Notes: a model not told the origin generated them from the letters alone. Shown: positions 3,485 through 41,663, numbered from the stretch's first letter. The stretch: 64,000 nucleotides of DNA from a virus (IMGVR_UViG_3300037692_000137:170229-234228), one strand, 5' to 3'. Translations and numbers: made by a program.

Positions 3485-5215
3485 TTACTTTATTTTTTTC
3501 TTTAATATAGCCATAGATATATTAGGATTACCTACTGCCGCGGTAGCAGTTCTGGATATCTCTCTAAAAGAAGCATTTGGGCTTCTTTCTCTAACCATAC
3601 CACCACAACTATGTAATACAGGATCTAAAACAGTATCCACCGGCTTACTTAATTCTTTTGCTCCATACCCAGCTAAAATTAAAGAAGAGTATAAGTCTTT
3701 GTTTTGTCCTTTCTTAGGTGTGTCAAAATGTAGAACGCCACTGCCAGTTTGAGTTAATATAATACTGAGCAGTTGTTTTTTAAGTTCATATATGGCTGCG
3801 TATTGCTCATCTAATTGATCAGACCCGTCCGGCATGCGCTCTGGAAATAGTAAAAGTCTGTCTTCAAACAAGGATAATGTTGAATAGTTAGCTTCTTGTA
3901 TCCACTGTGGCGTAAAATTTATTAACTCTAATATATGCTTGCCTTTCCAATGAGAATGATCTAGATTAGTTCTATCTATAATAGGTGTTGCACCATTATA
4001 ACCTTCTTCTAACAAATCACATATAGCTTTACCACCGCCGGCCTTATCCATATATATACGAATAACATTATAGGTTTTGCAAACACTCTGTAAAGTAGTC
4101 ACCATACTTTGTGTCGTGCCATTCTTTACTTCTAACATATTTACTATTCTATTTGGTTGTCCTAATTTAACTATGGACACACCACAGCTTGCTGAGCCAC
4201 CTTGATTAGGGTCTACGCCAATGACATATTCAGCCTTACTATCTCCACTTAGTTCTAAGTAGTGCCCACTGTTACTTGTACATGCTTCTAGCATAGAAGC
4301 TTTAAAAAAGCCTTCGGAATCAGACACCATCTCTGCTTCATATTCCATACGAAATTCATGGTCAGACATTACCCGGCGGGCCTCTTCAATGTTGTTCTCG
4401 TCCAAGAAACCTTTTGGTAAAAACCAGTGAGGTATCTGATGCACCATAACATTAGACCCTTCTTCACCTTCCTGTATAATTTTATCCCAATACGCACGCA
4501 TACGCCTATACATATGATTGAATTTATAGAAACCAGAAGAAGTCATTACCATCTTATTAACCTGCTCATCATCAAAGTCCTCTTCTGTGGCTAGTCCGGA
4601 CTCAATTAGCAAACGCATCTGCTCAAGGCGTCTAACATTAGCCATAGGATCTTGCTTTGTAGCTCCCATAGGCCGGAGAACCATATCTAATATCTTATCT
4701 GGAACTTGAGCCAACTCATCAATACATATTAAATAAAAACGGGAACCACGTATTTTGGCGCCATCATTACCTAACGGTATAGCCTCAATAAAAGAACCAT
4801 TACTAGAACCAACTGATTTAAATTTAAGATAAGCGGTGTCAGATCCTCTAATTGGTTTCTTTTCTGTGGCTTCCCTGAGGATGGCTGATTTTGTATAGTG
4901 TTTTTCTACTTCGGAAAAAATCATTTTGGACTGTCTAAAGGAGGGACCTACTAAGCCAACCCTATACCCTGGGTATAGCATAGCACGTAGTGCGGCTAGT
5001 GTACCTAAAAGAAAGGACTTACCAAAACCACGGCCGGCCACGGTAATTGTATAGTCTCTAAACCACATATCTTCAAATACGATACGTTGTATAGGAGCTA
5101 AATCTACGCCAAGTAAGTCATAGGCGGCGATACAAGGATTATTTCTGTAGAATTCTATTAACATAGGACCCTGCCCCATTACAGCGTCCATCATTCTACC
5201 TTTCTTAGGAGCCAT
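3485..5215 (-). CDS. terL: Terminase large subunit
   Basis: Walker A AGRGFGKS, Walker B ICIDE, RNase H-like IGVDP and KDLYSS; upstream of portal. Confidence 0.92.
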   Translation of the reverse strand: MAPKKGRMMDAVMGQGPMLIEFYRNNPCIAAYDLLGVDLAPIQRIVFEDMWFRDYTITVAGRGFGKSFLLGTLAALRAMLYPGYRVGLVGPSFRQSKMIFSEVEKHYTKSAILREATEKKPIRGSDTAYLKFKSVGSSNGSFIEAIPLGNDGAKIRGSRFYLICIDELAQVPDKILDMVLRPMGATKQDPMANVRRLEQMRLLIESGLATEEDFDDEQVNKMVMTSSGFYKFNHMYRRMRAYWDKIIQEGEEGSNVMVHQIPHWFLPKGFLDENNIEEARRVMSDHEFRMEYEAEMVSDSEGFFKASMLEACTSNSGHYLELSGDSKAEYVIGVDPNQGGSASCGVSIVKLGQPNRIVNMLEVKNGTTQSMVTTLQSVCKTYNVIRIYMDKAGGGKAICDLLEEGYNGATPIIDRTNLDHSHWKGKHILELINFTPQWIQEANYSTLSLFEDRLLLFPERMPDGSDQLDEQYAAIYELKKQLLSIILTQTGSGVLHFDTPKKGQNKDLYSSLILAGYGAKELSKPVDTVLDPVLHSCGGMVRERSPNASFREISRTATAAVGNPNISMAILKKKIK

Positions 5216-10143: not shown

Positions 10144-10407
10144 CATATATATTCGAGTAAGATCGTTAAACTTACCCCGTCTATAATTTCTAGACAGCTG
10201 CATGTTTCCATACAGATTAGACTATATCACCAACCAATCTGGTTGCTACGCGCTTCCACTCACTTGAGTGTACTTCCTTTCGGAATAGTCGTTGCAGGTT
10301 CCTCATTAATAGAGGCTTCCCTCAGGATTGTCCTCGACTTGACGTTAGGATATTCCCTGAATTCACGTAGTTTTTCAAATCACATTACTGTAAAAAGCCG
10401 CCTATGG
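10144..10407 (-). ncRNA. Group I self-splicing intron (IA2-like, 264 nt, no homing endonuclease)
   Basis: P1 CCGU/GCGG with U.G at the 5' splice site; P2 with GUAA loop; P3 CUACGUG/CGCGUAG; P4 UCAGG/CCUGA; R CCUGCAACGACUA; S GAUAUAGUC (P7 GACUA/UAGUC); P7.1 UUCC-GAAA-GGAA; P7.2 CACUC/GAGUG; P8 CAACCA/UGGUUG; P9 UGUAUG-GAAA-CAUGCA; terminal G; removal restores an in-frame Csp. Confidence 0.93.
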
Positions 10408-10455
10408 ACGGTCGTTAGAAAACCATTTTACAACACCATTAATTCTTTCTTCCAT
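10408..10455 (-). CDS. csp: Cold-shock protein, exon 1 (MEERINGVVKWFSNDR)
   Basis: AAAGGAG SD; G-VVKWF Csp N-terminal motif; joins in frame to exon 2 (71 aa product). Confidence 0.9.
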
Positions 10456-11003: not shown

Positions 11004-11993
11004 TTATAGCTGTGCAGCCATTAAACACCCGGCAGCGACACAGGTCATAGGTGAGGTGGCTCTTCTAATTTCGCTAATAGCCATAGGAAGTACTATACCA
11101 GACAAACGGTCTTCAAACATTTTAGTAAAGCCGTCAGCCAACGTCAGTCCGCCAGAAACAATGATTGGTACAGGCTCTCTAAAGATAGGTAGTTTCTTTT
11201 CTTGCTTTTTTAACTCATATGAAATATTTTGAAGCACGTAATTAATTACTGAAGAATAGTAAACTGATATAGCCTCAGAAATTTTATCTTTGGGGTTGTA
11301 CAAATCTATACCTGCTTCTTTTTCTAACTGAACTAATGATGGTGACATATCTAAAGCAGTGCCAACTGAATGGTCAATAAAATCTCCTGATCTTGTTACA
11401 GAAAATTCTACTAAGGGGTCACCTTGATGAATTACAGCTATGTTGCACATACCAGCGCCAAAAGACAGTGTAATACCAGTTAAAGAGTCGTCTAACAACT
11501 CACTTAAAGCTATAGCAAAGGCTTCATTTATTGGCTGCCCTATAAAACCTTTTTCACGCATGAACATGTTTAGTATCTCTGTGTGGTAAACGATATCAAA
11601 ATTACCGTCTACTGGTTTTGCTGGGACACTGTATACTAAAGGCTCGTCGCCGGAGCCTTTACCAATTAAGCTACTTAGCAACAATTTAAGCATTGGAAGG
11701 CTGCTTTTTTCTTTAGGGGATATTACCCCCTTAGACATAGGGCGGCTAGATACATCATTACGTTCCATTGCTATATGTAGAGCATCTTCTCCTACTACAA
11801 TGAAGTCATTACCTTCTTCTATAAAGTTGGAGCCTCTTTTTTCTAGTGACTTTTTGATGGCTTGTTTATTAACGTCACTCTTTGGAACTATTCTATAAAA
11901 AGCATCACGCTCCATCTTAAATACGGGATTACCCTCTTTATCTATAGAACCACACACCAACATATTAGTACCAACATCAACACCTTTTGACAT
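11004..11993 (-). CDS. Actin-like ATPase (MreB/ParM superfamily)
   Basis: Phosphate-1 GVDVGT, connect-1 INEAFA, phosphate-2 SFGAG, adenosine IIVSGG, terminal AAG. Confidence 0.8.
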   Translation of the reverse strand: MSKGVDVGTNMLVCGSIDKEGNPVFKMERDAFYRIVPKSDVNKQAIKKSLEKRGSNFIEEGNDFIVVGEDALHIAMERNDVSSRPMSKGVISPKEKSSLPMLKLLLSSLIGKGSGDEPLVYSVPAKPVDGNFDIVYHTEILNMFMREKGFIGQPINEAFAIALSELLDDSLTGITLSFGAGMCNIAVIHQGDPLVEFSVTRSGDFIDHSVGTALDMSPSLVQLEKEAGIDLYNPKDKISEAISVYYSSVINYVLQNISYELKKQEKKLPIFREPVPIIVSGGLTLADGFTKMFEDRLSGIVLPMAISEIRRATSPMTCVAAGCLMAAQL

Positions 11994-29179: not shown

Positions 29180-29721
29180 GTGTACTCCTCTATGTTATCT
29201 TTATCATGGTCGATGGGTTTTATAGCGCCCGAAATTATTTTTTACAATAAAAAGGGCAGTGCTTTTTACACTACCCTTTCAGGCTTCCGATATTGCCTTT
29301 GTTACACACCTTTATCACAAGTTACTCCACTCCCAGCCGTTTTTATTTTAGTTTTAATTCACTCACTGCCTAATAGGTTAGTTTATAATAATATAGTATA
29401 CTATCCATAGTATCTACCATATTAAAGTAGACATGTTAAAATCGTTATATACTATTAAAATCGTTATATACTATTCGATAGATAATCTAGTAGACAACTT
29501 ATATGCTCATATATTTATACCATCGATAAATTAGTTATACTGATTATACTGGAGTTGTAGTATACCTTACTATAACTTTATACCCATTATCACACTAATC
29601 TACCTTATAACTAAGACTACACCACTATACTATAATACTACATTAATGGCAGTGCTGGCTTACTCTACTCTAGTTTACTAGTTTATTGTGTTACTAGTTT
29701 ATATAATACTCTACGGTAGGA

Positions 29722-29756
29722 CTACTCTACTCTACTCTACTCTACTCTACTCTACT
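29722..29756. repeat. (CTACT)7 perfect microsatellite in the divergent intergenic region
   Basis: Read directly from the sequence. Confidence 0.95.
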
Positions 29757-30044
29757 ATTATATTACTATACTATCATGGTCATCTATTTATAGGTCCGCA
29801 AACTATTTTATTGTATACACCTACATACAAACGCTATCGTTGTTATGTAGTTGAAATTTAAATAAAATATAGCCAAAGGGACCCATATAGTAAGTCATGT
29901 AGAAAGGTATATATTACAGACTTATAGGGCCCCCTTATGCGCATTTTTGATTTTTACCCTGAGTAATGATGGTTTGTTTTTTACCTGTATTGTGAAGGAT
30001 TACCCTTCTATTTATTAATCTTTAGTCCTGTAAGGAGATTTGTC

Positions 30045-30317
30045 ATGTCTACATCTATTATTTTAGCGCGGCCTTCAAACCTCTCAAATACTTTCTCTTC
30101 CTCCGATGGTAAAATCACTGCTATCGCTGGCCGTTGTGGTGAATTTGACAATGCCCACGTTCTGGAGGTTATCACCCCTAAGGGCACCTACCACCTTTCG
30201 GGGGACAGGCTTGGTCAGAATCTTACCCGTTACACTGGCTATGCCCCAGAACACTTCCTTATAGCAAAGTACGATAAAGGTTCTATTATCCTTAGCTGGA
30301 CACCTTATCGTAAGTAA
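30045..30317 (+). CDS. Early hypothetical protein (90 aa)
   Basis: AAGGAG SD; TPKGxYxL motif shared with 30714..30986. Confidence 0.6.
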   Translation: MSTSIILARPSNLSNTFSSSDGKITAIAGRCGEFDNAHVLEVITPKGTYHLSGDRLGQNLTRYTGYAPEHFLIAKYDKGSIILSWTPYRK

Positions 30318-30342
30318 TTATAAGGTATACGCCTTGTACTAA

Positions 30343-30410
30343 TGTCGAAACCCCGCTATGAGGGGGCCTGTTAGGACTGGACCCCCTAATACTGATGATG
30401 ATAGACCAAC
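30343..30410 (+). ncRNA. Type II hammerhead ribozyme, degenerate copy (U16.1 to C)
   Basis: UGUC-GAAA-CCCC/GGGG-C-C-UGUUAGG/CCUAAUA-CUGAUGA-U-GAUA. Confidence 0.65.
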
Positions 30411-30441
30411 TACTAACCTTTTATCCTGTAAGGAGGATGCC

Positions 30442-30678
30442 ATGAACATTCAACACATCTGTAAGTCCCAAACTAATTGTAAAGCACAGCCTGCTGCCAA
30501 TTGTGCTGGTTGTTTCTACTACGACACCGTAAAAGAAACTGCTATATGTGTATGCTGTAACCTGGCGGCTGACCAAGGCAGTGAGTACTGTGGCTTCTGT
30601 AATCCAGTCTACCAAGAGCGTTTCAGGAAAGCAGTTATCCGTGAATCCGCTGGCCTTCATAGTGAGTATGATATTTAG
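30442..30678 (+). CDS. Cys-rich early protein (78 aa; start re-called)
   Basis: AGGAGG SD before the ATG at 30442. Confidence 0.6.
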   Translation: MNIQHICKSQTNCKAQPAANCAGCFYYDTVKETAICVCCNLAADQGSEYCGFCNPVYQERFRKAVIRESAGLHSEYDI

Positions 30679-30713
30679 TCATCTCAACAACCTTTTATCC
30701 TAGGAGGATAACC

Positions 30714-30986
30714 ATGAGCAAACACGTCGCAAAACAACAGCACTCTTTCCCTTTAACAGCAGTAAAGACTGTAGGTAAACAGTCAGTTCTATTTGAGACC
30801 ACTCCTGCTGGGTTCTCAGTAGCTTGGTGCGACAGTACTCCTGATAGAGTTACCCTCACAACCCCTAAGGGTAAGTACACTCTTATCAAGCACAGAACAT
30901 TGGGCTACTACCACGGTGTTTGTGGTGGGTTTAAGGTTCAGGTATCACTTAAAGTCCAGGTGGGTGAGCTTCGAGCCTGGTATTAA
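30714..30986 (+). CDS. Early hypothetical protein (90 aa)
   Basis: AGGAGG SD. Confidence 0.6.
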   Translation: MSKHVAKQQHSFPLTAVKTVGKQSVLFETTPAGFSVAWCDSTPDRVTLTTPKGKYTLIKHRTLGYYHGVCGGFKVQVSLKVQVGELRAWY

Positions 30987-30989
30987 CCA

Positions 30990-31055
30990 CTGTCGAAACC
31001 CCTCTATGAGGGGTCTATTAGGGCCGGCCTCCTAATATTGATAATGACAGGCCAA
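30990..31055 (+). ncRNA. Type II hammerhead ribozyme (predicted cleavage after C31015)
   Basis: Stem II CUGUC/GACAG; GAAA; stem III CCCCUC/GAGGGG; GUC cleavage triplet; stem I UAUUAGG/CCUAAUA; core UUGAUAA (U3-A8 covariant of C3-G8) plus an extra U; loop I GGCC can pair with 3' GGCC. Confidence 0.85.
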
Positions 31056-31262
31056 CTAACACAACCTTTTATCCTGATGGAGGGATACCCATGAAAGAAT
31101 TACTTACAGCAGATGAGTCTTTTGAGAATGTAGCACATATACTTGAAGTATTAGCCCTGGCAGATGAGGCTGATTTTGAGTTTATTAATTAACATTTTTT
31201 TGCCAGATCTATGTGGCGTAGCATTACCCTATACAGCTGCTAAGCAGCAAAGGAGCAGTATT

Positions 31263-31463
31263 ATGTTTATTTGTGAGGTATGTGGCTGTGCTTTTGGCGG
31301 AGACTGGTCGCCGGTATGTGATAAACAAACGTGCTATGATGCCTTCATGCAGCATGCCTGCACTGATGAGGAGAACTGGGGGCCTGAGGACGGTGGATGT
31401 TGCCCTTGTAACAGCCCCAGTTGTGATGGCACTTGTGCTAAACAACAAGGAGAACTACTATGA
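31263..31463 (+). CDS. Cys-rich early protein (66 aa; start re-called)
   Basis: AAGGAG SD; MFICEVCG. Confidence 0.55.
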   Translation: MFICEVCGCAFGGDWSPVCDKQTCYDAFMQHACTDEENWGPEDGGCCPCNSPSCDGTCAKQQGELL

Positions 31464-31669
31464 ACTGTATTAAAAACTGTGTTAAATGTGTCGAGTCTGA
31501 GTGTGCTTCCCACCCACTTAAAGCACAACTTAAGAAGTGTACTCGTTGTGGAGCTATGGAGGTATTAACAATCACAGAGTATGGGGCCACAGCTTCCTGC
31601 CCTAACGATAAGCACCCCGCTCGTATCCTTAGCGCAGCCAGCAACGTATGGGCGGCTATGGGTTGCTAA
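31460..31669 (+). CDS. Cys-rich early protein (69 aa)
   Basis: AGGAG SD; coupled. Confidence 0.55.
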   Translation: MNCIKNCVKCVESECASHPLKAQLKKCTRCGAMEVLTITEYGATASCPNDKHPARILSAASNVWAAMGC

Positions 31670-31719
31670 CTACCAATGGGCCAGGACCACATGACTGACC
31701 CAAACTAAGGAGTTATAGT

Positions 31720-32007
31720 ATGAAGATAAACAACGCATTAAAAAGACTCATTGAAGAGGCCTTATCAGAGGCTAAGGCGGCCTCTACTGAGTACGTTGTA
31801 GTAAGATGCTTGTTCAGGCACGCTCTTTGTCGCAAAACACGCCTTTCTAAGGGCCAGGCTACATGGGTATGGCACAACATAGTATACGTTGACCCTAAGC
31901 ATGTATGTGGCAGGGAGCAGCGTGGTGAAATAAGTAGGTCTGACCAATGCGGGTTCAGATGTATCTCGCCTTTAGGCAACTGTCCTGACTTTAAACTTTC
32001 GCTCTAA
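31720..32007 (+). CDS. Early hypothetical protein (95 aa)
   Basis: AAGGAG SD. Confidence 0.55.
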   Translation: MKINNALKRLIEEALSEAKAASTEYVVVRCLFRHALCRKTRLSKGQATWVWHNIVYVDPKHVCGREQRGEISRSDQCGFRCISPLGNCPDFKLSL

Positions 32008-32019
32008 GGAGACATCACC

Positions 32020-32271
32020 ATGACTGCTAATACTGTCACTACTACCAATGAACATCCGCCGTTTGTAACCACTGGCAGCGGTGTTGGCCCATCATTTGTA
32101 ACCACCTATGAATGTATCATAGGATGGAAAGCTGTTTTGATTACTTGGGACGCTGAGTTTGGTTATATTCCAGATACTACTGCCTACTTCGCTCATCCAA
32201 CTGAAGACGTTGCTATCGAGGATGCTAAGCAGTGGGCGGAAGCCGAAGGAATTGAGTACCGTCCGCGCTAA
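32020..32271 (+). CDS. Early hypothetical protein (83 aa)
   Basis: AAGGAG SD. Confidence 0.6.
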   Translation: MTANTVTTTNEHPPFVTTGSGVGPSFVTTYECIIGWKAVLITWDAEFGYIPDTTAYFAHPTEDVAIEDAKQWAEAEGIEYRPR

Positions 32272-32310
32272 ATAGTTTATTTATCTCTAACCTTTTTCAG
32301 GAGAATTACC

Positions 32311-33072
32311 ATGAAATCTATTAAATCAATCGCAGTAGTAGCAATCATTGTTCTTTCACTCGTAGCCTGTAAACAAGAGGCTATGGTTAGTGCTCCTCAG
32401 CCCGCGGTAGTAGTTGGTAACGTATACACCACTGATGTTCTGCGTTATGAGGGCGACATTGTTAATAACATGCCCAATGGTAAGGGTGTTATCACCTTCA
32501 TCTGGGGTGATACTTATGCCGGAGATGTTGTCAACGCACTACCTAATGGCGGAGGTGTTATGCGTTATGTGGATGGCAGTATCTACCGCGGGCAGTGGAA
32601 GGACGGCCTGCGTGACGGGCATGGCAGGTTTGACTCATCTGATGGCAGCCGGTATAATGGTTCCTGGGTAGCAGGGAGTAAGCATGGCCAGGGAACACTT
32701 ACAGTGGATGGCCTTAGCCAGACGGGTACCTTTGAGAAAGACCAGCCCAAACGTGTTGTGGTTTTGGATACTAATACCTGTATCGAAGGTAACTGTCGCA
32801 CAGGCTATGGTATTAAACGCACAGCAGACGGTGTTTACTCTGGTGACTTCGAAAACGGTGACTTCCATGGACAAGGCACATTTAAGTATAGCAATGGTGA
32901 TACCTACAAGGGCAGCTTTCTCAAGGGACACATGTTTGGTGCTGGAAGGCTTACCAGCCCCAATAACCATTGTGTAACCATGGGTATCTGGGAAAGAGGT
33001 AAATGGGTTGAGGGTAACAGACGTTACGATGACGGTACACCTGAGTACATTCTTATGAGACACATTCTGTAA
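32311..33072 (+). CDS. MORN-repeat lipoprotein
   Basis: Signal peptide with lipobox LVA-C; repeated YxGxWxDGxRxGxG motifs. Confidence 0.85.
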   Translation: MKSIKSIAVVAIIVLSLVACKQEAMVSAPQPAVVVGNVYTTDVLRYEGDIVNNMPNGKGVITFIWGDTYAGDVVNALPNGGGVMRYVDGSIYRGQWKDGLRDGHGRFDSSDGSRYNGSWVAGSKHGQGTLTVDGLSQTGTFEKDQPKRVVVLDTNTCIEGNCRTGYGIKRTADGVYSGDFENGDFHGQGTFKYSNGDTYKGSFLKGHMFGAGRLTSPNNHCVTMGIWERGKWVEGNRRYDDGTPEYILMRHIL

Positions 33073-33083
33073 TTGTCGCTTCT

Positions 33084-33113
33084 CTCTGCTTATCTCCCGT
33101 TAGGTAAGCAGGG
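33084..33113 (+). other. Conserved hairpin, copy 1
   Basis: CTCTGCTTATC-8 nt-GGTAAGCAGGG just after a stop codon; related to 36398-36427. Confidence 0.6.
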
Positions 33114-33162
33114 GTTAGGAGACAAGAACAATAATAACCCTATCATGAAAAGGAGAAATATC

Positions 33163-33360
33163 ATGACCGCACAATTACGTTGGTTCGAGCGCATTCATCA
33201 GGCCGTTGTTGTTACACAAGATAAAGTGTGTAAATATCAAATTCACAATATGGAGGAGTTGGAAGTAGCCATTAAAGTATTAGAAAGTATGTTCAGTACT
33301 AGTGCTAAGCTGGTTAGTTCTAAGAAGCCAGATGTGTTCATATTTAACTTCAACAAATAA
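33163..33360 (+). CDS. Early hypothetical protein (65 aa; start re-called)
   Basis: AAGGAG SD. Confidence 0.55.
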   Translation: MTAQLRWFERIHQAVVVTQDKVCKYQIHNMEELEVAIKVLESMFSTSAKLVSSKKPDVFIFNFNK

Positions 33361-33434
33361 AAGGAGACACACGCCATGTCATTACGTTCAATTGTATGTA
33401 CGTGTCGCCGCACCCAGACAAGCCACACTTTCTT

Positions 33435-33502
33435 GTCGATTGGGCGACTATAAATAGGCATTAGGCCCAAAGCGCCCCTATCTATACCAGGTAGGGGGTT
33501 GC
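33435..33502 (+). ncRNA. Pistol ribozyme (predicted cleavage G33498/U33499)
   Basis: P1 GUCG/CGAC, loop AUUGGG pseudoknotting with CCCAA; UAUAAAUAG; P2 GCA/UGC; UUAGGCCCAAAGCG; P3 CCCCUAUCU/AGGUAGGGG; G-U cleavage dinucleotide. Confidence 0.88.
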
Positions 33503-33541
33503 TCTCTGTGTTAGTTTATTAACTTTATATAAGGAGATTGT

Positions 33542-33826
33542 ATGTCATATATCACACTTATTCATTGGACTATGCGCATATTTAAGAGTTCTTCTGTTCT
33601 TACTGTGCATGAAAAACAGATTATTTATGAAGTGCCTTTTTCCGGTTTATATGACGCTAAGTACATGCGTTATTTATTAATAAATAGGCTTATTCCAAAA
33701 GGAGAGTTAAGCGAATTAGATAAGTACATAAAAGAGGTACTTGTAGATGAATGGGATAAAGCATTAACAATAAGGGTGTGTGTTATTATACGCTATAACG
33801 CTGTCATAGGAGGTAGTCATGCCTAA
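33542..33826 (+). CDS. Early hypothetical protein (94 aa)
   Basis: AAGGAG SD. Confidence 0.55.
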   Translation: MSYITLIHWTMRIFKSSSVLTVHEKQIIYEVPFSGLYDAKYMRYLLINRLIPKGELSELDKYIKEVLVDEWDKALTIRVCVIIRYNAVIGGSHA

Positions 33827-34007
33827 ACAAAAAGGAGACACGTTGGTGCTTTATCAAAACATGTCAGACGGTCATTGGGTTAGGGGGTACTGCCTTTCGC
33901 CCGCATGTGCATGTAGTAACTACAGGAAAACACATTGTGACAATGGAACATGTCGTTTCTATAAAGAAGAGTTTATTTCTATTAAACAGAAAGGGGGTAG
34001 CTCATGA
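33819..34007 (+). CDS. Cys-rich early protein (62 aa)
   Basis: AGGAGG SD. Confidence 0.5.
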   Translation: MPKQKGDTLVLYQNMSDGHWVRGYCLSPACACSNYRKTHCDNGTCRFYKEEFISIKQKGGSS

Positions 34008-34172
34008 CTATAAGCACAGTAGCAAGGTGCTCTGTATGTAAACAATTAAAGAGATATTTCTATTTCTCTTTATCTGAGCAGGCTAAACTAAAACCAGCCG
34101 TGTGTAATGACTGTTTTGACTCAGTCAATGTACCTTTATTCACAATTATTGGCGTTGGGGGGGGGTAATATT

Positions 34173-34379
34173 ATGAGCACGTTCTTTATCACGATGGGTG
34201 TTGCTGCAGATGGGGGCTTTCAGCCGGTAAAAGCTGTAAAGCTGCCTAATAGCCGGATAGCTGTAGTAAACAGGAGCCCAATTACTACGCACTGTCCAGA
34301 GTTAGCAGAGGAGATAGCAGAGGCTTGGGCAAAAGAGGAAGGCTTAATCTACAACAAGAAGGAGAATGACTATGTTTAA
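34173..34379 (+). CDS. Early hypothetical protein (68 aa; start re-called)
   Basis: ATG preceded by a G9 tract that could serve as SD. Confidence 0.5.
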   Translation: MSTFFITMGVAADGGFQPVKAVKLPNSRIAVVNRSPITTHCPELAEEIAEAWAKEEGLIYNKKENDYV

Positions 34380-34602
34380 ACTCGACTCTCAGAACATACT
34401 TATTGGTGCTGTTATTGTAACAATTATCTGGTTCTTCAATTACATATTGGGTTCCATGCTGATTATTATAGCAGCAAGTGTTATCGGGTTGTTTATGTTT
34501 AACTGGCTTGGTAGTATATTCCGTAAGGATACAACAAAGCCCAAAGATAAGGCAAAAGACCCAACAGACTTGTCAGGGGCATTTAAGGAGACTAAACCAT
34601 GA
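34366..34602 (+). CDS. Small membrane protein (78 aa)
   Basis: Two hydrophobic segments; AAGGAG SD. Confidence 0.6.
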   Translation: MTMFKLDSQNILIGAVIVTIIWFFNYILGSMLIIIAASVIGLFMFNWLGSIFRKDTTKPKDKAKDPTDLSGAFKETKP

Positions 34603-34861
34603 AGATAGTAAAGGTAGTTTGCTCGTGGTGTATTGCTGAGGGGTTTCCTGTGACCCCTTTACATGAAATAGAGGTGCCTGATGATGTTGAAGGAGATTCA
34701 CACGGTATCTGCGAGTACCACGCCTCAGAGTTGGAAGAGATGCTGACGTTATACATGGAGTATGATGAGGAGTAAAGATATCAAACTTAATTACAAAGGA
34801 GACAGCAAAAATGTTCACATAACCTAAGGGAGGTGGTGCCTATGAGATAAGCGTTAGGGTT

Positions 34862-34940
34862 TAACGTGAAGGGCAAACCCGGAGCAATCCGGGGACGCAA
34901 AGCTATGGGCCCTCATTGTGAGGGCAGCCAGGTTACCAAA
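34862..34940 (+). ncRNA. c-di-GMP-I (GEMM-I) riboswitch
   Basis: AAG-GGCAAACC-CGGA-GCAA-UCCG-GGGACGCAAAGC-UAUGG-GCCCUCA/UGAGGGC-AGCCAG-GUUACC; GNRA loop; G at the position equivalent to G20. Confidence 0.9.
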
Positions 34941-34965
34941 CAAACCGAATTACAGGAGAATTACC

Positions 34966-35934
34966 ATGAAGAAATCAATCGTTATTTCCGCAATCGTTTC
35001 TCTTATTTCTATTATGTCTACCTCATCAGCACAGGGTGAACTCATTGATGGTCGTTTTACTGTTCTGGATACCACTACCAATTACGAATGGCAGAAACAC
35101 CCCTTCGTGTATACCAATTGGTATGACGGTAAGGACCAATGTGAAGACCTCGTTATGGATGGGCATGATGATTGGGTTATGCCTATGCCCGGCCATTTGA
35201 GAACAATCAAGGGCGTTATCCAGTACCTGGCATACAACTACATGTACTACCACACAATCAAAGAGTATTCAGCTACGGCGGACTACTCATACAACATTGA
35301 TACTGGTGTTGTTGGTGTTGTATCCAAATACAATCTTGGCAACGTTCGTTGTATGCGGGATGCTTCGGCTGATATGGCTGAGGTTATTACCAGCGTAACT
35401 ATCCAGAAAACCGGATATTACACGATGGCCACTTCCATTGCCAACGTAACTGGCATGGTATCAGCATTTGTTGATGGTGTTCTGGTGGCTTCTTACAATA
35501 CCGACTATATCAACACACCTGTTGGTATTGGCAATCTTACCGCCGGCCAGAATCTGGAAGTTACGGTCAATGGCGACAAGGCCGAGGGCATCAACGAAAT
35601 CGATTGGCAGAGTTGGGATATGACCTTTTCTGCCGGTGACATCGAAATCTATGTCGAAGACCCTCCGGTACCCAACAATTGTGTTGCCGCTGAGCCTACT
35701 GAAGAACTGCCCCCGCCGGTGATTGTTGAGGTGGGTATTACCAAGGCGCAAGTACTCAACAGTAAGAACAAGAGTACTTTAACGTTGGTATTGAACGTCC
35801 CTGAACAGATTACTATGGGAGACGGCCCCGCAGACTTCACGTTCTTCGTTTACAAGAATGGTTCAGATGTTGCGTATGTAGGTTCCACCGTAATGACACA
35901 CAAGGGGAATGGTAACATCATTTCCAATAAGTAG
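34966..35934 (+). CDS. Secreted DUF1566 (Lcl C-terminal-like) domain protein (322 aa; start re-called)
   Basis: CAGGAG SD; signal peptide; TVLDTTTNYEWQK...NWYDGKDQCEDL...GHDDWVMP...VRCMRD. Confidence 0.75.
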   Translation: MKKSIVISAIVSLISIMSTSSAQGELIDGRFTVLDTTTNYEWQKHPFVYTNWYDGKDQCEDLVMDGHDDWVMPMPGHLRTIKGVIQYLAYNYMYYHTIKEYSATADYSYNIDTGVVGVVSKYNLGNVRCMRDASADMAEVITSVTIQKTGYYTMATSIANVTGMVSAFVDGVLVASYNTDYINTPVGIGNLTAGQNLEVTVNGDKAEGINEIDWQSWDMTFSAGDIEIYVEDPPVPNNCVAAEPTEELPPPVIVEVGITKAQVLNSKNKSTLTLVLNVPEQITMGDGPADFTFFVYKNGSDVAYVGSTVMTHKGNGNIISNK

Positions 35935-35988
35935 TCTAACCAAAGGGGCGCCCTATCTGGGCGTCCCTACACCCAATGAGGTAATATT

Positions 35989-36390
35989 ATGACAGGGCAC
36001 TATAAACGTGGCATATACCACACAAATCAAGGCTTTGTTCACGTATATGCTCTCGAAAGTAAATGGTTGTATAAACGCGTATCCTTATCCTGTTTTACTG
36101 ATGTTGTAGAAGAAATGAATCAAGACACGTGGGATACTTGTGATGAAGTTAACGACTTGAACATATTAGCCAGATTTACACGCCCGGCTGATATTAGTGA
36201 CACATTCAGGATATGTGATGGAGCATCTACTTGCTTAAAGAACTGTTCAGCCAAGAAAGTACCTAATTCTGCTACGTGGATATCTACAGCAGTTTTAAAT
36301 AATCCTTCCGCCTGTATTCACTCAGACCACATAGATGGGGAAGAGCACGATTGTACGTACACAACTGTTTATGCCAAGTTAAAGCGTTAA
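35989..36390 (+). CDS. Early hypothetical protein (133 aa)
   Basis: GAGG SD; N-terminus resembles 38160..38405 (G.Y.G..G...V...E.KW.Y++V). Confidence 0.55.
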   Translation: MTGHYKRGIYHTNQGFVHVYALESKWLYKRVSLSCFTDVVEEMNQDTWDTCDEVNDLNILARFTRPADISDTFRICDGASTCLKNCSAKKVPNSATWISTAVLNNPSACIHSDHIDGEEHDCTYTTVYAKLKR

Positions 36391-36397
36391 CAATTCT

Positions 36398-36427
36398 TCC
36401 TGCTCATCAACTATTAGATGAGCGGGG
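36398..36427 (+). other. Conserved hairpin, copy 2 (possible pseudoknot to 36431-36437)
   Basis: TCCTGCTCATC-AACTATTA-GATGAGCGGGG; loop complementary to downstream AGTAGTT. Confidence 0.6.
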
Positions 36428-36639
36428 CTGAGTAGTTAAACCCGTACCACTTAATCTCTATACCAAGGAGGAGACCCATGAAACCAAAGTGTGGCTGTAC
36501 CGAATATGTGCTATGTGACAGATGTGCTATCATCCTGATGATGAAGATATTGTATTCATTTAGAAACGGTATTAAAAACGATACCACTACAACTACTAAT
36601 ACTGAACCTAAATAATTTATTCACTTGTGGAGGTGTACT

Positions 36640-36963
36640 ATGTTGGAAAAATGTAATGTTATCGAAAATAGTGTGTTGTGTGGTGAACCCGTACTTACAG
36701 ATGGTGCTTGTTATGACCACTGTGTTCCCTGTACTGTATGTGGTGAGCCTATTTCTAAACTTAAAGACAAACCTGTATGTGACTTGTGTGCGTACACCTC
36801 AGTACAGATGATTCCTGTCTATGTATGGCCGGATGATACGTGGATGTATGCGCATGAGTATAACGATGTTGAGGATGCCTGGCGGGGTGATGATTACACC
36901 ATCAAATACTTCTCTGGGGATTCTACGTATGAAGAAGTTGATGAGGCAGTATTGTCAAAGTAA
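36640..36963 (+). CDS. Cys-rich early protein (107 aa; start re-called)
   Basis: GGAGG SD. Confidence 0.6.
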   Translation: MLEKCNVIENSVLCGEPVLTDGACYDHCVPCTVCGEPISKLKDKPVCDLCAYTSVQMIPVYVWPDDTWMYAHEYNDVEDAWRGDDYTIKYFSGDSTYEEVDEAVLSK

Positions 36964-36983
36964 ACACTTGTGGAGGTGTGCTT

Positions 36984-37934
36984 ATGGATATTTATGAAAG
37001 AATAACTACCAGGCTTGATGGCTTCTTCAAAAAAGGTATGAAGAGGCATTCCTTTGTTGACAAACAACAACACCAGTTGGCCAGAATCAACGCCTCAAAG
37101 ATTTCAAGGGCGCTTAACTCACTGCCGATGTACTTTGTTAACATCTACGATGAATTGGTAAGTCCTACATTTAGGGAACACGCTGCTAAAATATCCGAAT
37201 ACGTAAAGAAGAATAACATTACAGTTGATGAAGTATATGCCGCGTTTAGGGCCCCTTACAATGATTTTGTTCTTTGCGATGGCGTGGACCTTTATATCGT
37301 AAATAGTCCCGCTAATCTTGTACTTAACATGTTGGTGTTTACACCATATCGTGATGAAGGGCGCCCTTATTTTGGTCTATATATTGAGGCCAATCTTAAT
37401 ACCGATATGTGGAAGGTAAAAGATATGGTGATGTTAACCCATAATGCGTTACTTCCTAAAAAGGCTGTTTCAAAAGTATCAGCTGCTGATATACGTAACA
37501 TTTGTAACAGTCTTGACATTGAGAAGCTAACAGATATGTTTACTCGTGTGGGCCGGGTCATTCATAATTTTGTAATTTGTTCTGTATTTAGTAAGTTTGA
37601 AGGCGAGTATACCGATATTAAGAAGGTTACTCCTGGTGTTAAGCCTATTAGTAGTAGGCCTAATGTATTCAGAGAAATAGATATTAACCTCAACCATACA
37701 AAGTTTATTATGAACCGCAAAGCACAACGTAAGGGGCATAAACTTCAGTATCAAAGTGCTATGCCCAGGATGTTGAAGTACATGCGGCACGAGCGGTATA
37801 GCCAGAATGGGACACTTCCTATACAGTACGACATTCAAGGTAAGCCATACTACTACACTGTTGAGGTTGATCCGTTTACCAGAGGAAAAGAACTTCCTCG
37901 GAAAGAAGACAGTATCAAATACAAAGTCGGTTAG
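36984..37934 (+). CDS. Hypothetical protein (316 aa)
   Basis: GGAGG SD; long ORF. Confidence 0.7.
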   Translation: MDIYERITTRLDGFFKKGMKRHSFVDKQQHQLARINASKISRALNSLPMYFVNIYDELVSPTFREHAAKISEYVKKNNITVDEVYAAFRAPYNDFVLCDGVDLYIVNSPANLVLNMLVFTPYRDEGRPYFGLYIEANLNTDMWKVKDMVMLTHNALLPKKAVSKVSAADIRNICNSLDIEKLTDMFTRVGRVIHNFVICSVFSKFEGEYTDIKKVTPGVKPISSRPNVFREIDINLNHTKFIMNRKAQRKGHKLQYQSAMPRMLKYMRHERYSQNGTLPIQYDIQGKPYYYTVEVDPFTRGKELPRKEDSIKYKVG

Positions 37935-37953
37935 CCCTTAAAGGAGGTGCGTT

Positions 37954-38118
37954 ATGAAGATGAAGTATACAGTAATAGTCGAGAGCTCTACGTATAGGCT
38001 GGAAATCGAAGTTAATAAACTGCTTGCCGAGGGGTGGGTACTCCAAGGAGGAGTATCTACGACTACTTTGGAGGGCGGGACTCATTGTGCTCAGGCACTC
38101 GTGCTGATTGAGAAGTAA
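37954..38118 (+). CDS. DUF1737-like small protein (54 aa)
   Basis: AAGGAGG SD; EVNKLLAEGWVLQGGV...QAL. Confidence 0.55.
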   Translation: MKMKYTVIVESSTYRLEIEVNKLLAEGWVLQGGVSTTTLEGGTHCAQALVLIEK

Positions 38119-38159
38119 TAAGTGGTGGCGTCAATTGGTTCTTTTAAAGGAGGTTAACC

Positions 38160-38405
38160 ATGAACGGACACTTTTTGACTGGTATGTATTCTGGACACCT
38201 GGGAAATATCCAGGTAGCAGTCGTTGAGGGTAAATGGATGTACAGAAAGGTTAAGACTAGGGCAGCTCCTGATAAATATCTTCCTATGACTGAGTACGTC
38301 TGGGAGCGCTGCTGGCCTATCACTGAAGTAAAGTTGTTAAGGAAGCTGTATAGGACAACGGATGTCCTCTACAAAGAGAAGAAGGCTCGTGAGGTTGGAG
38401 CATAA
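38160..38405 (+). CDS. Early hypothetical protein (81 aa)
   Basis: AAGGAGG SD. Confidence 0.6.
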   Translation: MNGHFLTGMYSGHLGNIQVAVVEGKWMYRKVKTRAAPDKYLPMTEYVWERCWPITEVKLLRKLYRTTDVLYKEKKAREVGA

Positions 38406-38417
38406 CCGTACCACAAT

Positions 38418-38455
38418 GGGGAAAGGGCACTAGCTGCCTTTTCCCCCGTTTTTTT
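38418..38455 (+). terminator. Intrinsic terminator
   Basis: GGGGAAAGGGCA/TGCCTTTTCCCC stem followed by T7. Confidence 0.85.
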
Positions 38456-38830
38456 GAGGGGTAGTGTTACGAGAGCCACACCTCTTCTATCTGCTTGAGG
38501 GTGTAGATAGTTAACCCAAAACTCTTATTAACCTTGTTCATATCAGGAGGTATGGACGTATGTCTGAAATGACAAAAGATATTTGGTATTAGGTTATGGG
38601 TAGGCTTTGCCCCCATATGGGGGCGCGCCATTGTGCGCACAAAAGACATGCCCGTAACAGCTCCTTAAATTCCACCGGTTTCCTATGGAGGCATTGCCCT
38701 TGTGGGAACCCCGAGACCTCGGAAGAAGCAACCAGGTTTGAAAGAGTCCATGGTATGGGCCGGCCCCTAATTGGTACTGCCTTGGACAGACCATTACATT
38801 CAACTCATTGGCATAAAGGAGGTGGTTCAA

Positions 38831-39205
38831 ATGCCATTCTACACTGCGCGTATTAATTATAGTGGTGCTGACAGATTAGACATCACTGCTGCTGGACAAC
38901 ACCCGATAGGTAAGATATTTGCTCCTACTTGGGAAATTGTTAAAATGTGGCAAAACGCAAAAAAGTTGACTGAAAAAACTGGAGACCCCCGTATATTAGC
39001 TAAGGCAGAAGATTATTATAGAGAACAATATAAAGAGCAGATGCGAGCCAGTATACACAACAACGGAGGTACGTGGATTCAAGTACTTTCACAACCAACA
39101 GTTACCTTTGTTTGCTACTGCCCATCAGGGACATTCTGCCATAGGTATCAACTTATGGAAATTCTAACAAAAGAGTTAGGCGCCATCTACATAGGCGAAC
39201 GCTAA
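38831..39205 (+). CDS. DUF488/YeaO-like protein (start re-called)
   Basis: AAGGAGG SD; FAPTW...Y..QY...TFVCYC....CHR. Confidence 0.65.
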   Translation: MPFYTARINYSGADRLDITAAGQHPIGKIFAPTWEIVKMWQNAKKLTEKTGDPRILAKAEDYYREQYKEQMRASIHNNGGTWIQVLSQPTVTFVCYCPSGTFCHRYQLMEILTKELGAIYIGER

Positions 39206-39387
39206 CTACTTGGCCGTTTGGCGACGCAAGCCATCCCCTTGCATCCGCTGGCCAAGTCTCTACAAATTCCATGTAATATATTCACGAAGTACTGCTGATG
39301 AAGACACAATTTTTCCCGTATTGTGGAGAGCCATTATGGTATCTACCACTTCAACTCAACTTAACCCAAGATTAAAGGAGAAACACC

Positions 39388-39600
39388 ATGCCGACATACA
39401 AAAGAAAATTGGGCAAAAGAGATTATAAAGAGTTGTTATTAACCCAGGAAGAGGCCAGTAGCGTGGACCTTATGGAGAGTATATACAACAACGTACCGAC
39501 ATGTGGCGGGCAGTGGCAACACGAGGAGGAAAGCACATGGCGGCCCTCATGCCGTAGGAAAAATGACAGGCAATTAAGTCTTGACAAACTTTTCAGGTAG
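39388..39600 (+). CDS. Hypothetical protein (70 aa)
   Basis: AAGGAG SD. Confidence 0.45.
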   Translation: MPTYKRKLGKRDYKELLLTQEEASSVDLMESIYNNVPTCGGQWQHEEESTWRPSCRRKNDRQLSLDKLFR

Positions 39601-39627
39601 TGGTAGTGGTAGTAGGTAGTAACACCG

Positions 39628-39652
39628 GTAGTGTTTTTTCCCGCTTCGCGGA
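39628..39652 (+). repeat. Dispersed 25-bp leader motif, copy 1 (GTAGTGTTTTTTCCCGCTTCGCGGA)
   Basis: Identical at 41639; one T shorter at 58401. Confidence 0.9.
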
Positions 39653-41360: not shown

Positions 41361-41642
41361 ATGGCACCATACAGGGGTATGATTGAAGCCATTACCTCCA
41401 GTGAGTTTCGTATACAGCTCATTGGGGGTAACCCTGTAACATTCCCATATGATAACAAGTATGCGCATATGCGTAAATATGAAATCATCTGGGTATATAT
41501 CTATCACGGCGTAGTAACCGAGCTCCATACGTTAGAGTGTGTAGAACGTAAGAGCAAGGTGCGCCATAGACCACCACCAATGTCGCTGGAGATGTTGGAA
41601 GTGGAAGCAGGGGACTGTTTCGAAGAGGGTATTGTTTGGTAG
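41361..41642 (+). CDS. Hypothetical protein (93 aa)
   Basis: Coupled ORF. Confidence 0.5.
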   Translation: MAPYRGMIEAITSSEFRIQLIGGNPVTFPYDNKYAHMRKYEIIWVYIYHGVVTELHTLECVERKSKVRHRPPPMSLEMLEVEAGDCFEEGIVW

Positions 41643-41663
41643 TGTTTTTTCCCGCTTCGCGGA
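41639..41663 (+). repeat. Dispersed 25-bp leader motif, copy 2
   Basis: Exact match to 39628-39652. Confidence 0.9.

Follow-up and report, generated by a model that had tools for sequence, protein, structure and literature searches.

The window analysed here is the final 64 kb of a 234,228-bp virus record in IMG/VR (IMGVR_UViG_3300037692_000137), which is linear, ~89% complete according to CheckV and represents an uncultured phage from groundwater or sediment. Its genes change strand and composition at ~30 kb: to the left of ~29.9 kb they lie on the - strand at ~35% GC and include those encoding TerL (3485-5215), PhoH, a REC-HD-GYP protein and DUF285 proteins, and from 30.0 kb on they lie on the + strand at 42-46% GC. 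The AT-rich divergent intergenic region between the two groups (29400-30016) carries TACTCTA-type repeats (D4, D6) and weak sigma-70-like matches only, is 79-87% conserved in relatives and probably holds the promoter of the + strand genes. A strong intrinsic terminator with a 12-bp stem and a T-run (38418-38455, + strand) is their probable transcriptional 3' end, and since it is the sole strong terminator in 29.2-42 kb we treated 30.0-38.45 kb as a single + strand operon of ~25 small accessory genes. Most of these genes belong to no known family, the exceptions encoding a MORN-repeat lipoprotein, a secreted Lcl_C-like protein and a DUF1737 protein. An early role for the region, assumed in a previous interpretation made from the sequence alone (the sequence-only reading), is plausible. 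Here we describe the translation-initiation leaders that are reused within this operon, the ribozymes and other structured RNAs that lie between its genes, and the variation of both among close relatives.

Three kinds of leader are reused, all on the + strand and immediately 5' of start codons. The L1 leader, AACCTTTTATCCT, consists of a U-rich tract and a weak hairpin presenting GGAGG. It is found at 30415-30441 ahead of a 78-amino-acid (aa) gene (30442-30678), at 30689-30713 ahead of gene B (30714-30986, 90 aa) and at 31063-31090 ahead of a 33-aa gene (31091-31192), with a degenerate fourth copy at 30017-30043, a 70% match to the L1 reference copy, 5' of gene A (30045-30317, + strand, 90 aa). 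The L2 leader, CAGGAGAATTACCATGAA (L2 type: AGGAGAWTTACCATGA), precedes both the MORN-repeat lipoprotein gene (leader 32298-32315, gene 32311-33072) and the gene for the secreted Lcl_C-like protein (leader 34953-34970, gene 34966-35934); as the sequence-only reading had claimed for these two exported proteins, both begin with N-termini that read as signal- or lipoprotein-like. An L2-like leader at 38144-38164 precedes an 81-aa gene (38160-38405). The L3 leader, CACTTGTGGAGGTGT, forms a CACUU/AGGUG hairpin (CACUU-GUGG-AGGUG) and lies at 36622-36639, ahead of a 107-aa gene (36640-36963), and at 36965-36982, ahead of a 316-aa gene (36984-37934). We found no further occurrence of L1, L2 or L3 across the 234-kb genome.

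The reuse of these leaders ahead of small genes is real: between 30000 and 39400 there are three pairs of exact 15-mer repeats against a shuffle mean of 0.04, and six pairs of exact 13-mer repeats against 0.67. Exact repeats of at least 12 nucleotides (nt) are almost all located at translation starts, and every motif listed in the sequence-only reading lies where it had been placed. L1 and L3 form weak hairpins (-3.6 to -7.8 kcal/mol; -3.3 to -7.8 kcal/mol over all leader hairpins), in which GGAGG occupies the loop and 3' arm and which lack a T-run. The 33 promoter-like sites counted between 29.2 and 42 kb, a total not above chance (shuffle mean 27.3), all lie clear of the L1, L2 and L3 leaders. 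Estimated from their coordinates, the leaders make up ~2.5% of the operon.

A search with the 316-aa protein led to a sister population with 87% protein and ~80% nucleotide identity to the window, which occurs in many groundwater and sediment assemblies and includes one contig of 236,830 bp. We compared at least 15 of its contigs, from independent assemblies that include k=141 MEGAHIT contigs; outside structural differences they are 95-100% identical to one another. The leaders are identical in the window species and the sister species despite the divergence of the two genomes overall. Gene order between window and sister population is largely collinear without being invariant, so that the fixed order which would speak against cassette exchange was not what we found.

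Within the sister population, four structural differences map to leaders at nucleotide resolution. In the first, a 360-nt unit comprising an L1 leader, an 86-aa gene and a hammerhead ribozyme is present in nine contigs and absent from six, with both forms co-occurring in sample 3300025030. The leaders flanking the unit share a stretch of ~24 identical nt (28 nt aligned), and the form without it retains one hybrid leader that takes its left flank from the first leader and its right flank from the second. A second event concerns a 259-nt unit with a 72-aa gene between two L2-type leaders and likewise leaves a hybrid junction. In the third, strain L108 lacks the gene between two L3 leaders and retains a single L3, so that sequence from upstream of the first L3 runs straight on into an allele of the 316-aa gene. 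The fourth is an allele swap: L109-L111 are 98-100% identical to L089 until 13 nt past the second L3, where identity falls to ~45-55%; it rises to 88% where the 316-aa gene has its conserved 3' end, and is 99% again exactly from the leader of an 82-aa gene. The L2-like leader at 38144-38164 corresponds to the right edge of this swapped segment. Three of the four events leave a single hybrid leader, with the crossover inside 15-28 nt of near-identity and flanks from both parental leaders. Crossovers of whole-cassette gain, loss and replacement fall inside L1, L2-type and L3 leaders, as expected from the earlier proposal that the leaders serve as recombination homology.

By our own inference, repeats of 16-28 nt cannot have created the deletion forms as assembly errors, since these forms are found in several independent assemblies, k=141 contigs among them. 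Because a run of N lies within it, an apparent duplication in L092 that shows three copies of L2 was set aside as an artefact of scaffolding. Of 58 collection blocks with the 86-aa gene (the L1 array, L088-L104), 53 have this gene exclusively on contigs of less than 5 kb. The L1 array seems to be a place where assemblies break, as expected where several strain variants coexist in a sample.

Comparison of the window with the sister population adds further differences. Found in the window only are gene A together with the first hammerhead, a 25-codon open reading frame (ORF) together with a pistol ribozyme, and a 54-aa gene; a 147-aa gene is confined to the relatives, and a partly shared gene encodes 95 aa in the window and 126 aa in the relatives. 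In the degenerate L1 leader, homology to the relatives ends at the Shine-Dalgarno sequence. A block composed of hammerhead and leader is followed by the 78-aa, the 33-aa or the 66-aa gene, depending on the genome, and is preceded by gene A or by gene B or its 86-aa orthologue, to which gene B is 49% identical. Spanning the tail of the first window hammerhead and the leader at 30415 are 33 nt that recur without change after the hammerhead in L094. The 33-aa gene, fourth of the array in the window, has a 32-aa orthologue that is first of the array in the sister phages.

In a word-indexed protein search gene A, which is confined to this phage, matched only itself, and the protein search for gene B returned one partial homologue, whose 1.3-kb contig has no hammerhead. 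The possibility that genes A and B are paralogues was considered and is unsupported (BLASTP E 0.039 over 16 aa; hhalign probability 5%). In a more distant Logan contig, carrying P0006, genes of 86, 33 and 65 aa follow one another with gaps of 99 and 70 nt, respectively, which matches the window's gene B, second hammerhead, 33-aa gene and 66-aa gene. The window arrangement may therefore be shared with the P0006 lineage, and the 99-nt gap may hold a hammerhead.

Two type II hammerheads lie in the L1 array on the + strand, and both score below the Rfam gathering threshold for Hammerhead_II (RF02276; 37 bits). Copy 1 (30343-30410, 30.7 bits) has a canonical CUGAUGA core, an A15.1-C16.1 mispair (alignment column pair 13-30) and a predicted cut after C30368. 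Copy 2 (30991-31056, 32.2 bits) begins 3 nt past the gene B stop codon, has a U3-A8 core variant (UUGAUAA), an intact A15.1-U16.1 pair, which is also present in the sister alleles, and a GGCC/GGCC pseudoknot, with a predicted cut after C31015. An extra U follows A9 in both. The candidates have the architecture expected of this class, with three stems, an open stem II and loop I pseudoknotted to the 3' tail, and also the conserved core (CUGAUGA...GAAA in its canonical form) with its 3-8 pair, canonical in copy 1 and in the U3-A8 form in copy 2. The orthologous hammerhead in L092, L094 and L095 scores 50.3 bits. In an alignment of the four alleles, 93% of cells are paired compared to 31-55% in slid controls, with double-sided changes at two pairs of stem II, one pair of the pseudoknot and from C3-G8 to U3-A8. 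This covariation, together with the 50.3-bit orthologue, supports the assignment of these candidates as hammerheads. U3-A8 is a natural covarying variant that is reported to be active (PMC3088659), and the C3-A8 of the allele in L103/L104 is an apparent intermediate.

The pistol ribozyme (33434-33503, + strand) scores 65.3 bits against a threshold of 34.5 (RF02679), matches the model over its full length (positions 1-68), including P1-P3, the pseudoknot and the G-U cleavage site, and has a predicted cut at G33498/U33499, 43 nt upstream of the gene at 33542. It sits in an insertion of ~180 nt flanked by AAGGAGA, which also holds the 25-codon ORF (33376-33453, + strand); this ORF, read from the sequence, has its own Shine-Dalgarno, is absent from the relatives and ends with a stop codon inside pistol P1. 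At three of the four ribozyme loci a stop codon lies 1-3 nt before the ribozyme or is overlapped by it, and the first hammerhead lies 25 nt after the stop. Of the ribozymes and riboswitch predicted by the sequence-only reading, the pistol and the riboswitch thus hold up against Rfam thresholds, while both hammerheads fall short of theirs and are instead backed by covariation.

The riboswitch is a c-di-GMP-I-GGC aptamer (34863-34941, + strand; RF03167, 66.3 bits against a threshold of 59) located in the 5' leader of the secreted Lcl_C-like gene, ending 24 nt upstream of the start codon at 34966. It scores 66.6 bits in all seven sister loci scanned. Folding of 34776-34985 gave no clear expression platform (z = -0.9). 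At 34797-34823, ~40 nt 5' of the aptamer, lies a mini-ORF of three codons (ATG TTC ACA TAA) that is preceded by a good Shine-Dalgarno. In addition, two related two-tier hairpins follow stop codons on the + strand, at the cassette boundaries assigned to them beforehand: one at 33073-33125, after the MORN gene stop at 33072 (-27.8 kcal/mol for the containing 98-nt segment), and one at 36387-36439, after the stop of a 133-aa gene at 36390 (-27.5 kcal/mol for the containing 95-nt segment). Both are retained in relatives with compensatory changes, the first of them in L089. A GC-rich hairpin after the Lcl_C-like gene (35944-35968, + strand; -23.4 kcal/mol for the containing 63-nt segment) also has compensatory changes in L089. 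Collectively, ribozymes, riboswitch and related hairpins fill the largest intergenic gaps of the operon.

From the motifs and their conservation, together with the mapped breakpoints and the covariation of the ribozymes, we consider the best explanation to be that the leaders are homologous crossover sites for the gain, loss and swapping of cassettes, with the ribozymes as optional cassette appendages, and we hold this to be probable, with moderate rather than high confidence. Homologous exchange at the leaders is supported by the breakpoints, the linkage between blocks and genes, the identity of the leaders across species and the presence of RecA without a tyrosine recombinase, taken together. 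The phage encodes a RecA homologue outside the window (G000:C1:80052-80837; 265 bits), and RecT, tyrosine integrase and RtcB gave no match in the 234-kb genome. RegA and RegB gave none either, although both searches were equally empty in control genomes and hence say little. The leaders would be retained for translation initiation and, as the only long identical stretches among otherwise unrelated genes, would be where homologous recombination crosses, possibly through the phage's own RecA. Single genes could in this way be deleted, inserted, moved or replaced by divergent alleles with their neighbours undamaged, the direction of each event being one that we infer.

The ribozymes behave as optional parts of particular cassettes because, as judged from the comparison, they are present or absent among relatives, the riboswitch alone being constant. 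They would travel as 3' appendages: gene B or the 86-aa gene with a hammerhead, gene A with a hammerhead, and the 25-codon ORF with the pistol. Active copies would probably cut the long transcript just past the cassette stop codon, leaving an upstream message that ends in a hairpin and a cyclic phosphate and a downstream message that starts with a 5'-OH hairpin followed by the leader. That ribozymes cut long phage transcripts into messages of differing stability is an existing, unproven proposal, and the comparative data weaken the idea, put forward in the sequence-only reading, that RNA self-processing sets the expression of each cassette.

Several observations weigh against this account of leaders and ribozymes. 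On the ribozyme side, both window hammerheads score below threshold; mutants at the 15.1-16.1 position, where copy 1 has its A-C mispair, lose at least 10-fold activity (PMC3088659), and Perreault et al. rejected hammerhead candidates with such a mispair (PMC3088659); and the allele in L103/L104 has C3-A8. The pistol has no counterpart in any relative and the hammerhead is absent from six of 15 sister contigs, in which the downstream gene is led by the leader alone, so that the neighbouring genes do not need the ribozymes. On the side of the leaders, the edges of the window's 54-aa gene and of the relatives' 147-aa gene are not cleanly tied to leaders, one 57-nt in-frame indel lies away from them, all strain variants are known from metagenome assemblies, and breakpoints that survive selection for intact genes would likewise be clustered at gene borders. 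This last point leads to a different view, in which the leaders are simply well-tuned ribosome-binding regions and recombination is random and illegitimate, only products with intact genes surviving. The leaders are completely conserved among alleles and between species, a sign that they have a function themselves; this would fit such a view, as would an indel with just 2 nt of microhomology and those differences between window and relatives that lack a clean leader junction. We nevertheless regard it as unlikely, given that one hybrid leader, with its crossover in 15-28 nt of near-identity, is what remains in three of the four leader events, although leaders cover so little of the operon, and that exact identity over 15-28 nt exceeds the needs of a Shine-Dalgarno site.

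A similar question arises for the ribozymes, which could be neutral or selfish passengers, some of them decaying, that are merely linked to cassettes and have no role in expression. Their presence and absence among strains 99% identical, the occurrence of the pistol in the window only, the departures in the core (C16.1 for copy 1 and C3-A8 for L103/L104) and the failure to find either hammerhead or pistol in 29 TerL-related IMG/VR records all point in that direction; compensatory changes that preserve stem II, the pseudoknot and the 3-8 pair, the near-perfect match of the pistol to its consensus, and the cleavage of comparable phage hammerheads in vitro and in Escherichia coli (PMC3088659) point the other way, and we judge the passenger explanation a real but minority possibility. 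At the opposite extreme, the mobile unit might be a three-part cassette of leader, ORF and self-cleaving ribozyme, in which the terminating ribosome gates the ribozyme and the leaders are kept in part as dedicated linkers for portability between phages. In the hammerhead cassettes of gene B and the 86-aa gene the stop codon precedes stem II by 1-3 nt, and in the pistol cassette it falls within P1; with stop codons abutting or overlapping ribozymes, a terminating ribosome would gate folding and cleavage, and the transcript would be cut only if the upstream ORF was untranslated. We give this arrangement only a slim chance. The repeats could also go back to a leader-gene-hammerhead unit that was duplicated in tandem long ago, without ongoing exchange, as two leader-gene-hammerhead-leader units 648 nt apart with 90-aa genes of equal length might suggest. 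The two 90-aa proteins are not demonstrably related, yet the ~105-nt hammerhead and leader block is ~83% identical between the units (our own count, alignment A1), and polymorphisms at the population level indicate recent events, which makes this history very improbable. Promoterless small genes with repeats between them resemble, finally, the layout of a site-specific cassette system of the integron type. A tyrosine recombinase (PF00589) had no match in the 234-kb genome, whereas controls were matched in 14 of 14 genomes, and the repeats are ribosome-binding leaders of 15-30 nt, not imperfect palindromes of the attC kind; we find such a system hardly credible.

The lineage is remote from cultured phages. 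Cultured phages gave best TerL matches of at most 28% identity, and GenBank phages yielded no match to the DNA of 30000-39400 in either near or distant search modes. In IMG/VR the 316-aa protein had no relative and the hammerhead pattern no match, and operon DNA gave two short matches only in the 29 TerL-related records (73 nt at 77% identity, E 7e-9; 33 nt, E 8e-4). L1 and L3 leaders were not found in four of the larger TerL-related records. Two IMG/VR matches to the L1 pattern were dismissed as chance, since they lie inside coding regions of unrelated AT-rich phages.

Further features of the operon and its surroundings were recorded. The 316-aa gene is hypervariable among co-occurring strains (L108, L109, L110, L111), with alleles at 87, 50, 42 and 39% identity. 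The last ~70 residues of the protein, which belongs to no Pfam or PHROG family, are almost invariant, and the pattern would fit an early protein under diversifying selection. Directly after the operon terminator comes a GC-rich spacer of 375 nt (38456-38830) with few ORFs and no Rfam match, ~79% conserved in relatives, that contains the palindromes GCCCCCATATGGGGGC and TTGTGCGCACAA. An exact 26-nt repeat (39627-39652 and 41638-41663) flanks genes of 551 and 94 aa; it is 100% identical in the sister phages at both sites, and the surrounding DNA is ~73-76% identical. In the - strand part of the window, a group I intron (10198-10417, 86 bits) lies between two ORFs of unknown function, and a Volactin-family actin-like protein (PF25216, E 7e-63) is encoded at 11004-11993 in the structural-gene half.

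Taken together, these findings document well a form of phage genome plasticity that is already known, and do not amount to a new mechanism. Both ribozyme-flanked phage genes (Perreault 2011) and repeat-mediated shuffling by promoter-early stem-loops (PeSLs) are already known and the phage is uncultured, so the gain lies in documentation and test material rather than in a new concept. That material bears on the role of self-cleaving ribozymes in bacteria and phages, which is still an open question (PMC6765202): the lineage offers nearly isogenic natural junctions with and without a hammerhead (L094 type and L088 type) and a graded series of core alleles (C3-G8, C3-A8, U3-A8, C16.1) that can be used directly in reporter and cleavage assays. 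In addition, the data show at nucleotide resolution and in wild populations that ribosome-binding leaders, and not promoter-terminator cassettes alone, can act as recombination linkers, which helps to explain how small accessory genes turn over in phages without breakage of operons.

Several known systems resemble parts of this arrangement. Perreault et al. (2011, PMC3088659) described prophage operons in which several hammerheads flank single genes or short gene blocks and demonstrated cleavage in vitro, and the co-location of pistol, twister and hammerhead ribozymes has been reviewed (PMC6765202). As in those operons, the hammerheads here are of type II with a pseudoknot between loop I and the 3' tail, lie on the same strand and occupy intergenic spacers around single small genes of varying identity, with a second ribozyme class nearby; in both cases the role proposed is the processing of a long phage transcript. 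Here, in contrast, presence and absence at the strain level shows the hammerhead moving with its upstream gene between leader repeats, and two of the four alleles deviate in the core or at 15.1-16.1.

Phage T7 provides a parallel for cutting between cistrons. Its long early polycistronic transcript is cut by RNase III, a host enzyme, at conserved structured sites that leave stabilising hairpins; likewise, a long transcript would be cut at structured RNA elements here, except that cutting would be autocatalytic and the sites are optional. In lambdoid phages, diverged modules cross over at short boundary or linker sequences that are conserved where genes adjoin. The leaders share this role as short conserved sequences at gene borders, with the difference that they are ribosome-binding hairpins reused within one operon, so that intragenomic deletion is also possible. 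Integron cassettes depend on an IntI tyrosine recombinase and attC sites; here no PF00589 match was found in the genome, and the repeats are not attC-like.

The closest comparison, drawn already in the sequence-only reading for RB49, is with the PeSLs of the T4-type phages RB49/phi1, PST and nt-1 (Arbiol 2010, PMC2839356; Comeau 2014, PMC4122927). A PeSL combines a strong sigma-70 promoter with a terminator-like stem-loop, whereas the leaders described here have no promoter-like hexamers and their hairpins are weak, bear the Shine-Dalgarno and do not resemble a terminator or attenuator stem-loop; the host and phage lineage are also unrelated. Excised mini-circles, which arise by exchange between adjacent repeats, are a further feature of PeSLs. 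Without a promoter and without a terminator-like stem, the leaders are therefore not PeSLs, and the analogy fails as regards membership. It holds for the way of working: in both cases short regulatory repeats separate the stop codon of one gene from the start codon of the one after it, in regions with many small, non-essential genes, and indels and replacements between close relatives cross over in the repeats, as they do in the four events of the sister population. The leaders thus work like PeSLs.

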